This document shows, one piece after another, positions 1,320 to 7,434 of a DNA stretch of 64,000 nucleotides. The DNA is from Maliponia aquimaris (GTDB taxonomy: Bacteria; Pseudomonadota; Alphaproteobacteria; Rhodobacterales; Rhodobacteraceae). The translations under genes were made by a program, and so were the position numbers. The notes beneath the pieces were generated by a model. The model made no database searches, was not told the origin of the DNA, and worked only from the letters and a program-made list of their open reading frames with translations. Location of the stretch: contig NZ_FXYF01000009.1 of NCBI RefSeq assembly GCF_900184945.1, forward strand, positions 94,174 to 158,173, in the 5' to 3' direction. Every line of letters starts with the position of its first letter. Within the stretch, counting starts at the first letter, position 1.

Positions 1320-1669
1320 GCGGCGCGCTCTTCGAGGAGCAGCGCCGAGAGCGAGGCGTTGGCGGCTCTGGGTCTGGGCCGGGCGACGGCGATGTAGGCG
1401 AAGCGGTCGGGGCCCACGCGCTCCTGCACGAGGTGGACGAGGCCCTTCTCAAAGGCGCCCAGCGCGGCCTGACCGAGGTCGGCGAGCTGGCGGCGCTCGG
1501 GCTCCGGCAGGGTCGAGATCACCGGCGTGACGTCGATCCCGAGAAAGCCGCGGTGATACTCGATCCGGGCGCCAGCCTCGGCCTGTGCGATCCAGGCGTA
1601 GAGCTCGACATCGGTGAGCTTCGGCGTCGCCACGCGGGCGACGATCGGGGTTGCGGCGACCATCAGCAT
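1316..1669 (-). CDS. Hypothetical phage protein
   Basis: Start taken at internal MLMVAATP (ATG 1669..1667), which overlaps the stop of the AlpA-like gene (ATGCTGA). ATGA overlap with the downstream gene at 1316..1319. Confidence 0.4.
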   Translation of the reverse strand: MLMVAATPIVARVATPKLTDVELYAWIAQAEAGARIEYHRGFLGIDVTPVISTLPEPERRQLADLGQAALGAFEKGLVHLVQERVGPDRFAYIAVARPRPRAANASLSALLLEERAA

Positions 1670-1929
1670 ACCCGTGCGGCCCGCGCGGGGTCCGCGGTCA
1701 GCCGACGGGGCGAATGACCGACGCGCGCGACCGCCTCGCTGATTTTCAGGGCACGCTGCAGCTGGCTCTGCTCGAAGGCTTCGATATCGGCGAGCCGGTA
1801 GAGCACGCGTCCGCCGAGCTTGAGGAAGGCCGGTCCCTGGCCGTTGTAGCGCCAGCGTTCCAGCGTCCGGTGGGAGATCCCCCAGCGCCGGGCCAGCTCC
1901 TTCTGGTTCAGGCAATGCCTCTGCAGCAT
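1663..1929 (-). CDS. AlpA/Xis-family helix-turn-helix DNA-binding protein (excisionase or phage early regulator)
   Basis: MLQRHCLNQKELARRWGISHRTLERWRYNGQGPAFLKLGGRVLYRLADIEAFEQ is a textbook AlpA/MerR-type phage HTH. Start chosen at the second Met (1929). Confidence 0.7.
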   Translation of the reverse strand: MLQRHCLNQKELARRWGISHRTLERWRYNGQGPAFLKLGGRVLYRLADIEAFEQSQLQRALKISEAVARVGHSPRRLTADPARAARVC

Positions 1930-2131
1930 CGGTGTCTCCTCTCGTGTCGTCGTCGAGGAGACAGTGCGCAATTACGGTGTGGGATGTCGTGGGGACTGGC
2001 GGGGGATGCGGAGGGGGATCAGTCGGCCCTTGCGGGACAGGGTTCTGACCGCGGGTGGGGCACCATCATCCCCCACCATCCATCACCCATCCCCCTCCCG
2101 ATCCCACACGGATGGGGCGGAAGGGGATCGG

Positions 2132-2815
2132 TCAGTCGAGATTCAGACGGTAGCCGCCTCGGCGGTCGGACCGGATCAGCTGTCGCCAGTCCTTCTGCGA
2201 CTTGAAGACGTCGGCCATTCGCAGGCTCTTGGAGCCGGCGCGCGACAGGATCGCCTTGCCGTTCTGCCAGGGCGCGCCTGCCTGCACCGCCTCGTGCAGC
2301 GCGCGCACGACTTCCGCCTGGATCGGGCCCAGCTTGAACCGGCATCCGTTGCAGCGGACCTCGAAATAGTCGGCCGAGTGGATGAAGGTGGCTTCCTCCA
2401 TCGGCTGGCCGCCGGGCGAGAACCCGGTCTCGACCTCGAAACGGTCGCGTTCATCGCGCCTTAGCAGCAGGTCGCCGATCATGACGAGGACGGGCTGCGC
2501 ATCGCCCCAGGTCTCCGCGTAGTCGGCGCTCGGCGTCCGAAAACTCGCGAGATGAACCTCACCACACCGGAAGAGCTGGAACACATCGCGGGCGTGGAGA
2601 TCGAGCAGACCGCTATGGTAGCCTTGCTCCCATGGCACCTTGTATGGCTCGCCTCGATCGTCCTCCTCGATGTCGCCGAACTCCATGGGCGCGCCGAACA
2701 CGCGCACGGACAGACGCAGCTTGTCGTTCTCCGCGAGGTAGATCAGGTCGGCCTCGGTGATCTGCCACCGCTCAAGGATCTCGGGGAGCGTGAAGTACAA
2801 TTTGTCGATGTGCAT
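2132..2815 (-). CDS. Hypothetical phage early protein, divergent from the repressor (Cro/antirepressor position)
   Basis: 227-aa ORF; first gene of the leftward operon opposite the CI-like repressor. The N-terminal segment (LPEILERWQITEADLIYLAE) is HTH-like. No family assignment. Confidence 0.5.
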   Translation of the reverse strand: MHIDKLYFTLPEILERWQITEADLIYLAENDKLRLSVRVFGAPMEFGDIEEDDRGEPYKVPWEQGYHSGLLDLHARDVFQLFRCGEVHLASFRTPSADYAETWGDAQPVLVMIGDLLLRRDERDRFEVETGFSPGGQPMEEATFIHSADYFEVRCNGCRFKLGPIQAEVVRALHEAVQAGAPWQNGKAILSRAGSKSLRMADVFKSQKDWRQLIRSDRRGGYRLNLD

Positions 2816-2931: not shown

Positions 2932-3609
2932 ATGACCGAGCACCACACGCTTTCCGACCGCCTCAGAGCCCGGGCCAACCAGCTCGGCATCAGTCCCGCC
3001 CACGTCGCCGAGATGGCCGGCGTGAACCGTTCGTTCGTCTACGACATCCTCCGTGGCCGTTCAGCCCGCCCTGGTATAGACCGGCTGGCCGAGGTCGCCC
3101 GCGTGCTGAAGGTGGATCGCGACTGGCTGATCCATGGCATCGGCGAGGTGGAAGGGAAGCCCCCCTTCTTGGACAATCCTGACGACGCCTTTGTGGCCAT
3201 CGCCCACGCCACCCCGCGCCCGGCAATGGGCGGCGGCGCGGTCGTGACAGAGGACGGCGACACGCCCGGCCGCGTCTATCACTTCCGCCGCTCCTGGATC
3301 CGGAACAGCCTGAAGGCCAGCCCGTCGCAGCTGCGCATCATGCACGTCGAGGGCGACAGCATGGCGCCGACGCTCCTGAGCGGTGACGCGGTGCTGGTCG
3401 ACATGACCCGCCGCGCGCCCAACCCGCCCGGCATCTTCGTGCTGGACGACGGGATGGGGCTGGTCGCCAAGCGGCTCGAGCACATCCCCAACAGCGACCC
3501 GCCCGGGGTGCGCGTCATCTCCGACAACAAGCACTACCCCGAATACGAAAGAACGGCCGACGAGATCCACATCGTCGGCCGTATCCGCTGGTTCGCACGG
3601 GAGATTTAG
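2932..3609 (+). CDS. Phage CI/LexA-type repressor (XRE HTH + S24 peptidase domain)
   Basis: HTH region (LGISPAHVAEMAGVNRSFVYDILRGR) followed by the S24 signature VEGDSMAPTL with downstream VAKRL lysine region. Start ATG 2932 with RBS GGGGA; alternative ATGs at 2872 and 2917. Confidence 0.8.
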   Translation: MTEHHTLSDRLRARANQLGISPAHVAEMAGVNRSFVYDILRGRSARPGIDRLAEVARVLKVDRDWLIHGIGEVEGKPPFLDNPDDAFVAIAHATPRPAMGGGAVVTEDGDTPGRVYHFRRSWIRNSLKASPSQLRIMHVEGDSMAPTLLSGDAVLVDMTRRAPNPPGIFVLDDGMGLVAKRLEHIPNSDPPGVRVISDNKHYPEYERTADEIHIVGRIRWFAREI

Positions 3610-3611
3610 TA

Positions 3612-4958
3612 GTGGCGGCTGAAGAGGAGTTGGACGATCTTCTCGAGCTGGCGGGCTGCTGCTTTCGGGATGCCATGAGGGCCGTCGATATCGAGGCGTT
3701 CTTCTCCAGACGCGACATCCCACTTGCAGAAGGGACCAGCAAGAAGACGGTTGCCCAGAATACGCTCGCAAGCCTTTCGCGAGCAAAGGCGCTGGATCTG
3801 GTCCTCGAGTTTGCACGAGAACGGCGGAATATCGGCCTGCAGGACAGGGTTTACCTCCTGCAAGACAAGGACCAACCGGAGATCTCTGCGATCACTCGCG
3901 ACCGAGTGGCCGATCGCCTTGGTGCCGGGATCCATGGACAAGGCATTCGTCTGGGCGTGATCGAGGGGCTTTTCGATCTGAGTTCGCCTGCCGACTTCTT
4001 CGATAGCCCCACCAAGATCGAAGAGCTCCGACAACACGCGACTGGCGCGGCCCCGTTGTGGAACGCGAAGGATGTTTTCGAAGCCATCGGGGCAATAAAA
4101 TGTCCTTCGAGGAGGTTCGCGCAGCTGATCGAGACCGCTCTGGATCCTCGGTTTCGCGATGCCGACGAACAGACCATGCTGGCAGCGGACTTGACCCGCA
4201 TCCTGCAACTCGATGGCTACGAGGTTGCTCAGACAGGAGAGGTCTCGGGCCGCGCAACGTTCTCGGTACGCCCCATTCGCCGCGGCGTGGATGGGCGGCC
4301 GAAGAATCTGATCTTCGCGTCCAACGGACCAAAGCCGAGGCTCGGGTTCTCGGATGCGATCGACAACGAAGTCGTCGTGCTAGAGCATGCCGACAGCTGC
4401 CTCGTTTACGAGCGCCCCATCGGCAATGGATTGTCATGGCTCGACCTGGTCCGTTGGTGGATGGATCAGAGAGGGATCGCCGACCTCGCCGAAGCACGCA
4501 CCAGCCTCGGGCGGCGTCTACTTGCCTCGCTTGACGACGGCCCTGAGCAGGAGTTCTTCAAGGCGTACTTCCGCAATTTCGCTGAACGACTTGGAGACCG
4601 GCTGCCGGCGCTCATCCCGCAGGTCTACCTGCACTATGATCCGGAGATCGCGAGGCGTCTCCCTGACAAACGAATTCTGTTCCGGCAGCGCATGGACTTC
4701 CTGGTGCTGTTGCCGGGCCGACAGAGGGTCGTCCTCGAGATTGACGGCAAGCACCACTATGCGAAAGGCGAGCGCGCCGATCCCGGCCTGTACGCGGAAA
4801 TGGTTGCGGCTGATCGCAACCTTCGCCTTCGCGGCTACGAGGTGTTTCGGTTCGGGGGCTCGGAATTCTCTAACCCCAAGGGTTCGATGCAGGAATCTGT
4901 CGACAAGCTTGTGAAGTCATTCTTCGAGGAGCTGTTCGTCGTCCATCGCTTAGGATAG
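3612..4958 (+). CDS. Repressor-coupled two-domain protein: unknown N-terminal domain + C-terminal DUF559/Vsr-like PD-(D/E)xK nuclease-fold domain (candidate defence/exclusion protein)
   Basis: GTG start 2 nt after the repressor stop, with GGGAG RBS. C-terminal region (FRQRMDFLVLLPGRQRVVLEIDGKHHYAKGERADPGLYAEMVAADRNLRLRGYEVFRFGGSEF) has the DUF559 layout. N-terminal ~330 aa unassignable by eye. Confidence 0.6.
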   Translation: MAAEEELDDLLELAGCCFRDAMRAVDIEAFFSRRDIPLAEGTSKKTVAQNTLASLSRAKALDLVLEFARERRNIGLQDRVYLLQDKDQPEISAITRDRVADRLGAGIHGQGIRLGVIEGLFDLSSPADFFDSPTKIEELRQHATGAAPLWNAKDVFEAIGAIKCPSRRFAQLIETALDPRFRDADEQTMLAADLTRILQLDGYEVAQTGEVSGRATFSVRPIRRGVDGRPKNLIFASNGPKPRLGFSDAIDNEVVVLEHADSCLVYERPIGNGLSWLDLVRWWMDQRGIADLAEARTSLGRRLLASLDDGPEQEFFKAYFRNFAERLGDRLPALIPQVYLHYDPEIARRLPDKRILFRQRMDFLVLLPGRQRVVLEIDGKHHYAKGERADPGLYAEMVAADRNLRLRGYEVFRFGGSEFSNPKGSMQESVDKLVKSFFEELFVVHRLG

Positions 4959-5273
4959 CGCATCCCAAGAAGACCGCAGGCTTACGCAGAAGTCCCATAA
5001 GCATCTGAAAGTAATTGTTTTCGGGGCGCGCGCGGATAGCGTTTCTCCCATGCGAAACGCGCCGACATATCCGCGGCTGGGATCGAACCCGCTGCCACCC
5101 GACCAGATGACTCCTGCCGAGCGCCGCGCAGAGTTGTGCGACCTGCTGGCGCTGGGGCTGGTCCGGATGCGACTGCGCGAGCGCGGCGAACCTGCTGACG
5201 AAACTGGAGAAATTCTCCTACACTCTCCGGCCGACCAATGCCGTCATGCAACTCCAACTCACCGGAGAACCGC

Positions 5274-5726
5274 ATGACGACCCACGATCCAATTCCCGCG
5301 CGCCTGGCCGCGCTGAAGACCGCGACGACGCCGGAGCTGAAGGCGCAATGGCGCGACCTGTTCGACAGCGACCCGCCGCCGTTCAACCGCCGCTACCTCG
5401 AGAGCCGGCTGGCCTACCGCATCCAGGAACTGGCCTACGGTGGGCTGAAGCCCGAGACGATCCGGCGGCTGGAGCGGCTGGGCGAGGAACTCGACGGCGG
5501 CGACCGGAAGAAGAGCCGGATCCGCGCGGACGCCATGCCCATCGCCGGCACGCGGCTGATCCGCGAGTGGCAGGGCGTCGAACATGTCGTCACCGTCGCC
5601 GCCGACGGCTTTGAATGGCAGGGGCGGCCCTACAAGTCGCTGTCGGCCATTGCCCGCGCCATCACCGGCACGCGCTGGAACGGATGGGTGTTCTTTGGGC
5701 TGAAGAACCGGAGGGCGCGGACATGA
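5274..5726 (+). CDS. DUF2924 family protein (recombinase-associated)
   Basis: ATG 5274 with GGAGAA RBS; stop overlaps the serine recombinase start (ATGA). The motif set (WRDLF, RRYLESRLAYRIQELAYGGL, IREWQGVEHVVTV) is typical of DUF2924 proteins encoded immediately upstream of large serine recombinases. Confidence 0.6.
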   Translation: MTTHDPIPARLAALKTATTPELKAQWRDLFDSDPPPFNRRYLESRLAYRIQELAYGGLKPETIRRLERLGEELDGGDRKKSRIRADAMPIAGTRLIREWQGVEHVVTVAADGFEWQGRPYKSLSAIARAITGTRWNGWVFFGLKNRRART

Positions 5727-7048
5727 CGAAGGCCCCCTCGAAACCAGGAATGATCCGGAAACAGCGCTGCGCGATCTACACGCGCAAGTCGTCCGAGGAA
5801 GGGCTTGAGCAGGAGTTCAACTCGCTCCACGCCCAGCGCGAGGCCTGCGAAGCATTCATCGCCAGCCAGCGCTCCGAGGGCTGGGTGCAGGTCCGCGATC
5901 AATATGACGACGGCGGGATCTCGGGTGGGACTCTGGAACGGGCCGGCCTGAAGCGACTGCTGGAGGACATCGAGGACGGGCTCGTCGACGTGGTCGTCGT
6001 CTACAAGATCGACCGCCTTAGCCGCTCGCTGGCCGACTTCGCAAAGCTGGTGGAGGTGTTCGACCGTAACGGGGTGACGTTCGTCTCCGTCACCCAGTCG
6101 TTCAACACGACCACGTCGATGGGGCGGCTGACGCTGAACATTCTGCTCTCGTTCGCCCAGTTCGAACGCGAGGTGACGGCCGAGCGCATCCGCGACAAGG
6201 TCGCCGCCAGCCGGAAGAAGGGGATGTGGATGGGAGGCGTCCCGCCCTACGGCTACCGGGTCGAGAACCGGAAGCTGTTGGTCGACGAAGACATCGCCGC
6301 GCGTGTCCGCTGGATCTTCGCCCGCTTCCTCGAGATTGGGTCCTGCACGGAGCTGGCACGAGAGGTTGGCGCACGCGGCATCCGCACGCCGCGCGGGAAC
6401 AGGATCGACAAGAAATACATCTACCGGATGCTCAGCAACCGCGCCTACATCGGCGAGGCGGTCCACAAGGGCGAGAGCTATCCCGGCGAACACGACGCCA
6501 TCATCGACCGCGAGATGTGGGACCGAGTCCACGCCATCCTGCAGGAGAGCCCGCGCAAGCGCGCGGCCCGCACACGCGCCGACACGCCCGCGCTGCTGAA
6601 GGGCCTGTTGTACGGACCCGACGGCGCGGCGTTCTCGCCGACCCATACGCGTAAGGGCGACCGGCTGTACCGCTACTACGTCAGCCAGACGGTGCTGAAA
6701 CACGGCGCCGGGTCCTGCCCGGTCGGCCGCGTACCCGCGGGCGAGATCGAGGCCGCCGTCATCGACCAGCTGCGGGCGGTGTTTCGCCAGCCCGAGATCG
6801 TGGCGGGGACGTGGAAAGCAGCACGCGTCCACGTCGACGACATCACTGAGGCCGACGCCCGCGCGGCCCTGCAGCAGCTCGACCCGTTGTGGGACGAGCT
6901 GTTCCCTGCCGAGCAGGCGCGCATCGTTGCGCTGCTGGTCGAACGCGTCGACATCGGCACGGACGGGCTCAACGTGCGCCTGCGCGTCGATGGCCTCGGC
7001 AGCCTCGCGCGCGAGATGCTGGCCGGCGGAATCGAGGCTGCCGCATGA
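5723..7048 (+). CDS. Large serine recombinase (resolvase/invertase catalytic domain + recombinase domain + C-terminal extension)
   Basis: N-term CAIYTRKSSEEG (catalytic Ser region), VVVYKIDRLSRSL, GVTFVSVTQ, then recombinase-domain motifs (GGVPPYGY, YIYRMLSNRAYIGE). ~441 aa. Confidence 0.85.
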   Translation: MTKAPSKPGMIRKQRCAIYTRKSSEEGLEQEFNSLHAQREACEAFIASQRSEGWVQVRDQYDDGGISGGTLERAGLKRLLEDIEDGLVDVVVVYKIDRLSRSLADFAKLVEVFDRNGVTFVSVTQSFNTTTSMGRLTLNILLSFAQFEREVTAERIRDKVAASRKKGMWMGGVPPYGYRVENRKLLVDEDIAARVRWIFARFLEIGSCTELAREVGARGIRTPRGNRIDKKYIYRMLSNRAYIGEAVHKGESYPGEHDAIIDREMWDRVHAILQESPRKRAARTRADTPALLKGLLYGPDGAAFSPTHTRKGDRLYRYYVSQTVLKHGAGSCPVGRVPAGEIEAAVIDQLRAVFRQPEIVAGTWKAARVHVDDITEADARAALQQLDPLWDELFPAEQARIVALLVERVDIGTDGLNVRLRVDGLGSLAREMLAGGIEAAA

Positions 7049-7434
7049 CCCGAGGGACTCCAATCCCCGAGACCGTGACGCTCCATGTCCCGTTCCGTAT
7101 CGTGAAGCGCGGCGGGCGGAAGGAGATGCAACTGCCTTCGGGAGAGTCGGCCCCCCGTGCGCGTTTCGACAACACCATGATCAAAGCCATAGCGCGTGCA
7201 TTTCGATGGCAGCGGTTGCTCGACTCGGGCGAGTTCGCCACCATTGCCGACTTGGCAGCACACGAACGCATCGCAGCCCCTTACTTGACCCGGCTCCTGC
7301 GTCTCACCCAGCTTTCACCGGAGATTGTCGAGGCCATCCTTGAGGGAAGACAGCCGCCCGACCTGACGCTTGAGTCGCTGCGGGCGCAGTTTCCCATGGA
7401 TTGGAACAGTCAGCGCGCATTGCTGCGACTTTGA
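7045..7434 (+). CDS. Small recombinase-associated DNA-binding (HTH) protein
   Basis: Start overlaps the recombinase stop (ATGA). C-terminal TIADLAAHERIAAPYLTRLLRLTQLSPEIVEAILEGRQPPDLTLESL is an HTH-like segment of the kind that accompanies DUF2924/serine-recombinase modules. Confidence 0.5.
   Translation: MTRGTPIPETVTLHVPFRIVKRGGRKEMQLPSGESAPRARFDNTMIKAIARAFRWQRLLDSGEFATIADLAAHERIAAPYLTRLLRLTQLSPEIVEAILEGRQPPDLTLESLRAQFPMDWNSQRALLRL

Follow-up and report, generated by a model that had tools for sequence, protein, structure and literature searches.

The window, by which we mean the whole stretch of 64,000 nt of Maliponia aquimaris DNA that was analysed, holds a CI-type prophage repressor gene and, directly behind it, a gene for a 448-aa protein that joins an AbiJ_NTD3 domain to a Vsr-like nuclease domain (Table 1). 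The longest open reading frame of the repressor begins at TTG 2872, the likelier start being ATG 2932. Its product matches Peptidase_S24 (1.4e-13) and HTH_31/HTH_3 (about 1e-8) in Pfam, as well as phrog_4 'transcriptional repressor' (1.1e-38) and phrog_6201 'CI-like repressor' (2e-18) in PHROGs, which bears out the LexA/CI-type repressor recognised in an earlier, sequence-only reading of this DNA, and it is 98–99% identical across nine genomes. As that reading had also described, the repressor stop codon TAG (3607–3609) is followed by 2 nt and then by the GTG (3612) of the nuclease gene, with a GGGAG inside the repressor's last codons; the whole layout, GGGAG-N3-TAG-NN-GTG, is identical in 10 of 10 aligned copies. 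The GTG start is further backed by homologue P0009 (68% identical), which begins with MAADVELDDLL at the same position. A sequence scan of the stretch between the repressor and the nuclease gene picked up nothing promoter-like, nor anything terminator-like on the coding (+) strand. Across the nuclease gene the GC content is 0.59–0.62, compared with 0.67–0.70 in the flanks (or 0.60 compared with 0.66–0.67), and GC3 is 0.71 compared with 0.85.

Table 1. Features of the repressor–nuclease locus and its flanks, in positions of the window
Feature	Position	Strand	Basis or remark
Divergent leftward operon start, lytic side of switch	1663..2815	-	orf227 and excisionase/MerR-like HTH gene
Excisionase/MerR-like HTH protein	1663-1971	-	PHROG phrog_66, 1.5e-10
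orf227	2132-2815	-	No family; no PHROG match
CI-type prophage repressor gene	2932..3609	+	HTH_XRE and Peptidase_S24; PHROG repressor matches
GGGAG Shine-Dalgarno-like motif	3599..3603	+	Inside repressor's last codons, 8 nt before GTG
AbiJ-NTD3 / Vsr-like nuclease gene	3612..4958	+	448 aa, GTG start, stop 4956-4958
N-terminal helical bundle, Death-like (PYD/DED/CARD-like) fold	3612..3878 (aa 1-89)	+	Five helices
AbiJ_NTD3 domain, predicted sensor	3879..4364 (aa 90-251)	+	Pfam PF18860, E 4.7e-35
Central beta strands and three helices linking sensor to nuclease	4365..4607 (aa 252-332)	+	Model secondary structure
Vsr/DUF559-like PD-(D/E)xK nuclease domain	4608..4955 (aa 333-448)	+	Structure model, conserved residues
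Predicted catalytic codons	D362 4695-4697; E376 4737-4739; D378 4743-4745; H382 4755-4757	+	
Imperfect two-part inverted repeat	5032..5074	+	Overlaps start of small ORF
Small conserved ORF, 75 codons, between nuclease gene and DUF2924	5050..5277	+	Alternative start ATG 5109
DUF2924 protein	5274-5726	+	Pfam DUF2924, 7e-54; integration module, prophage end
Large serine recombinase	5720-7048	+	Pfam Resolvase 1e-38, Recombinase and Zn_ribbon_recom; integration module, prophage end

Judged by its early genes and integrase, the surrounding element makes up the right arm of a prophage of Rhodobacteraceae. Its genes encode a Sak4-like annealing protein, a Cas4-type exonuclease, a Dda-like helicase, a primase-helicase, a RuvC-like resolvase, the DUF2924 protein and the large serine recombinase, and it is found on IMG/VR provirus contigs of 22–54 kb; phage structural genes were not seen in the retrieved stretches. 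Megablast of the element against plasmid and phage collections returned matches to the recombinase region only. The block common to the nine genomes stops at 7355–7404. A functional tie to the type I R-M system 2.8 kb downstream was rejected, because the shared prophage block ends at ∼7,400 and the right flanks of the other copies differ. The repressor and the nuclease gene stay paired in nine GTDB genomes and in 12 IMG/VR proviruses, including cases in which the nuclease gene is down to 67–69% identity or the repressor to 75%, and in one provirus (L084) orf227 and CI diverge together. Since the repressor is oriented towards a phage early operon, and its variation follows that of the cro-side gene and not that of the nuclease gene, we also rejected a role for it as a dedicated, BrxR/CapH-like regulator of the nuclease gene.

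On the same strand as the repressor and immediately 3′ of it, in a phage-derived element and with conserved linkage, the nuclease gene occupies a prophage immunity-region 'moron' slot of the rexAB-like kind. This repressor-coupled slot had been proposed in the sequence-only reading, and the linkage in genomes and proviruses, the GC dip and the phage early genes uphold it. Lambda rexAB, BstA and other repressor-adjacent prophage defence genes likewise lie directly 3′ of cI, on the same strand and with lower GC than their flanks, a slot that by design has them present in the lysogen. The proteins are unrelated to the one studied here, RexAB being a two-protein membrane-depolarising system and BstA a DNA-binding Abi. 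Moreover, co-transcription is documented for rexAB, whereas for the present gene we infer from the 2-nt junction that it is co-transcribed with the repressor and made in the lysogen.

The product was modelled with AF2 (mean pLDDT 85.7), and the model consists of four modules, namely a Death-like bundle, AbiJ_NTD3, a linker and a Vsr/DUF559-like nuclease, instead of the two domains that had been read from the sequence. The ∼330 residues preceding the nuclease, said to match nothing, do include a known domain family and a helical bundle. Residues 1–92 model as a Death-like (PYD/DED-like) bundle whose best structural matches are PYD, DED and CARD domains; a sixth helix (aa 93–103) is seen in the full-length model, and a sequence-level link of the bundle to any Death-family profile was not obtained. 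Residues 90–251 belong to AbiJ_NTD3, with 120.9 bits against a cut-off of 32.5 and model positions 1–167 of 167 covered. Because this domain is named after an abortive-infection protein, its presence strengthens the defence reading. It was matched in 105 of the 107 diverse relatives used for the conservation and domain counts, and it contains the invariant motif G-x-PKNLIFAS-x-G-x-KP (aa 228–242). The linker that follows has conserved W276, W282 and W283 in the family alignment and received no family or fold assignment.

The Vsr/DUF559-like motif noted earlier in the C-terminal peptide is present, and this region models as a PD-(D/E)xK/Vsr-like fold, one of the checks that had been suggested, with an alpha-beta-beta-beta-alpha-beta core and likeness to solved members. 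Among the 107 relatives, conservation of the motif D362...E376-x-D378-G-x-x-H382...D401-R402...R413 is 90% or higher; D362 is invariant, E376, D378, G379 and H382 are each at least 90% conserved, and across 18 distinct alleles of the prophage lineage the catalytic residues do not vary. K380, which had been named as a mutation target in MDF...EIDGKHH, is not conserved. The Pfam DUF559 match of the protein itself lies below the gathering cut-off (14.5 bits against 20.6, E 0.032); among the relatives DUF559 is matched in 42 of 107 at E ≤ 0.01 (best 8e-6), DUF2726 in one and REase_MTES_1575 in three. Pfam gave no Abi_C or HEPN family in the protein at E ≤ 1, PDB sequence searches, run with the protein alone and again with the 107-sequence profile, returned only spurious helical-repeat matches, and Foldseek against PDB found nothing significant (best E 0.045). 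In sequence, similarity to Vsr, DUF559 (3hrl) and the 'EDxHD' homing endonuclease I-Bth0305I is marginal, and these are small stand-alone or intron-borne enzymes, unlike the 448-aa protein. Neither the T:G mismatch specificity of Vsr nor the homing-site specificity of I-Bth0305I is evidenced for the present domain, and the JGI label 'very-short-patch-repair endonuclease' for family members is, as a function, almost certainly wrong.

The family comprises >1,100 clusters at 50% identity, from Alpha-, Beta- and Gammaproteobacteria, Firmicutes and Actinobacteria, with ∼600 genome hits, and relatives are carried on 86 plasmid records. Locus genes were grouped by ORF clustering, the low GC3 of the nuclease gene making GC3-filtered calling miss it at many loci. 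The neighbours on both sides differ wholly among lineages (CI, HamB, GajB, PDC-S32, JetD, a DinB-like polymerase, a trypsin-like protease and others). A relative lies directly 3′ of Hachiman HamB in 12 loci (PADLOC E=0), downstream of Gabija GajB in 10, where it mostly overlaps (by 1–4 nt) or abuts the gajB stop, overlapping the defence candidate PDC-S32 by 8–11 nt in 12, and after Wadjet JetD in one; the number of independent associations is smaller than these locus counts, because a few mobile elements, present in near-identical copies, account for many of the loci. GajA upstream of GajB was confirmed in two Gabija loci. Many loci have no CI, GajAB, HamAB or PDC-S32 partner. As judged from these neighbourhoods, only the present prophage lineage has the gene coupled to a repressor. 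The survey of homologues suggested earlier therefore points to mobile and defence contexts and not to housekeeping ones, with repressor adjacency limited to the lineage at hand. A type II toxin–antitoxin module was rejected, since no conserved small antitoxin partner gene travels with the family.

No model in PADLOC-DB v2, NCBIfam or PHROGs matches the 448-aa protein, and in the literature on DUF559 and anti-phage activity we found no characterised system of the AbiJ_NTD3–nuclease type. The description of the gene as uncharacterised holds for its function, which is still a predicted one, but not for the family, which databases know (NCBI names its members 'AbiJ-related protein') and whose AbiJ-NTD3+REase architecture is listed in the 2013 work (PMC3710099).

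Experiments have shown AbiJ and its homologue SadR to act in defence (PMC13064643, PMC13590631), and AbiJ-NTD3 is carried by 510 of 2,815 Abi_C proteins (PMC13590631). Like AbiJ (Lactococcus Abi-859) and SadR (S. aureus), the present protein is one chain with an N-terminal AbiJ-type domain and a C-terminal nucleic-acid-cutting effector; both groups occur on mobile elements and in defence islands, and both fit the sensor-plus-toxin logic of N-terminal sensing and C-terminal killing proposed in 2013 (PMC3710099). They differ in the effector, which in AbiJ/SadR is an Abi_C HEPN RNase (R-x(4-6)-H) and here a Vsr/DUF559-like PD-(D/E)xK domain, predicted to be a DNase; the C-terminal Abi_C HEPN domain with RNase motif that marks AbiJ/SadR proper is absent from the 448-aa protein. 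An extra Death-like domain before NTD3 and a conserved 80-aa linker after it further set the present family apart. Its architecture class is that of the AbiJ-NTD3 + REase (DUF2726) fusions, which were already catalogued, with predicted function only, by Anantharaman et al. 2013 (Table 2, example gi:56476843; PMC3710099). There they are a table entry alone, without structure, context survey or experiment, and the Death-like module and the prophage repressor coupling are unmentioned. The present family is probably the same as that family or its sister.

Our preferred reading, which we hold to be reasonably probable, is that the product is a nuclease of a temperate Rhodobacteraceae phage that works as a single chain in abortive infection or superinfection exclusion and is made in the lysogen from the message of the CI-type repressor. 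The anti-phage role is a prediction of the kind put forward on paper in 2013. A candidate defence or superinfection-exclusion gene combining a sensor region with a small nuclease is also what the sequence-only reading had proposed, and the PD-(D/E)xK fold, AbiJ_NTD3 and the mobile and defence contexts lend support to it. In the mechanism that we infer, the nuclease would be held silent by the N-terminal region in the resting lysogen. A component of the incoming phage, or a replication or recombination intermediate, would be sensed by the AbiJ_NTD3 region, and the protein would then turn on, possibly via self-association through the Death-like domain. Proteins of annealing or recombination are one candidate class of trigger, given that escape mutants of lactococcal AbiJ are mutated in an ssDNA-annealing protein (PMC13064643). 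The effector, presumably a metal-dependent endonuclease with D362, E376, D378 and H382 as its predicted active site, would cut DNA, and the infection would be halted at the cost of the invader genome, the cell genome, or both.

The gene is nearly always the downstream cistron in an operon of another gene (gajB overlap 1–4 nt, PDC-S32 overlap 8–11 nt, cI gap 2 nt), and the Gabija linkage persists across GajB identities of 63–100%. Such placement would also suit a protein that is not an autonomous sensor-nuclease but an accessory effector, inert alone, which works with or is regulated by the upstream system, CI here and GajAB, HamAB or PDC-S32 elsewhere; Death-fold domains being typically adaptors (PMC8195603, PMC10312443) would agree with this. 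We think it unlikely, as the upstream partners are mutually unrelated, the neighbours of the 107 loci hold no second Death-like copy, and many loci lack any of these partners. Nuclease-toxin logic together with a place in the immunity operon would likewise be expected of an addiction or exclusion module, in which the toxin, restrained while the repressor operon is expressed, stabilises the prophage or hits plasmids and competing prophages instead of lytic phage. SadR, the AbiJ homologue, blocks both phage and plasmid transformation (PMC13590631), and an IS3-family insertion disrupts the gene in one of 22 copies, which is compatible with a fitness cost. We give this explanation little credence, because a conserved small antitoxin gene does not accompany the family across contexts and the repressor's co-variation is with the cro-side gene, not with the nuclease gene.

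A nuclease of the phage's own life cycle, acting in Vsr-like mismatch repair, recombination or host-DNA degradation after induction, or else a selfish EDxHD/Vsr-like homing endonuclease, appears very improbable. The gene stands on the lysogenic (repressor) side, while the lytic operon has its own Cas4-type exonuclease, Sak4 and RuvC, and the protein had no tblastn match at E ≤ 1e-3 in 50,697 sequenced phage genomes. Its relatives are found in bacterial defence islands and on plasmids, not in introns, inteins or among conserved phage genes, and the 330-aa AbiJ-type N-terminal region is absent from Vsr and homing enzymes.

[quoted passage not shown] The present bundle resembles such adaptors (gasdermin, NLR-like, bDLD/EAD) in being a helical bundle of ∼90 aa at the N-terminus of a predicted immune effector, but in those systems the domain pairs with a second copy borne by a partner, which is a protease or an NLR-like ATPase. 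Searched against all ORFs of the window and of the 107 loci, an HMM of the present bundle matched the N-termini of family members only, with no copy in neighbouring genes, so a homotypic Death-like partner does not lie nearby. It is conceivable, though we regard it as unlikely, that the bundle is a true prokaryotic Death-fold domain driving signal-induced self-polymerisation of a one-chain immune protein, and that prophages, Gabija, Hachiman and PDC-S32 operons each acquired the family as a plug-in second-line defence. If true, the family would be a minimal 'inflammasome-style' device with sensor (AbiJ_NTD3), assembly domain and executioner DNase on one polypeptide. With the possible Death-like domain, the few listed bacterial immune proteins that have a Death fold would be joined by one that is neither a protease nor an NLR.

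Were the defence prediction right, the gene would represent a widespread single-gene defence system that no current detection tool flags, in which an AbiJ sensor drives a DNase in place of a HEPN RNase; this would help to define what AbiJ_NTD3 senses. Because the gene repeatedly stands last in the operon, after cI, gajB or PDC-S32, the family lends itself to testing whether defence genes are layered through operon hitch-hiking.

On the 3′ side of the nuclease gene, the arms of the hairpin reported earlier at 5032–5074 do exist, but its strength does not stand: the fold energy of −26.5 kcal/mol is at the level of shuffled sequence (z=−0.09; an equally good fold in 88 of 200 shuffles), no T-tract follows, and the terminator scan does not detect the repeat. 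An intrinsic terminator 3′ of the gene was rejected on the z-score and the missing T-tract. The 300 bp that had been taken for a gap are probably occupied by a small gene, the conserved ORF at 5050–5277; it matches no Pfam family, its frame is open in every copy, and substitutions among nine copies number 14, 11 and 27 at codon positions 1, 2 and 3.

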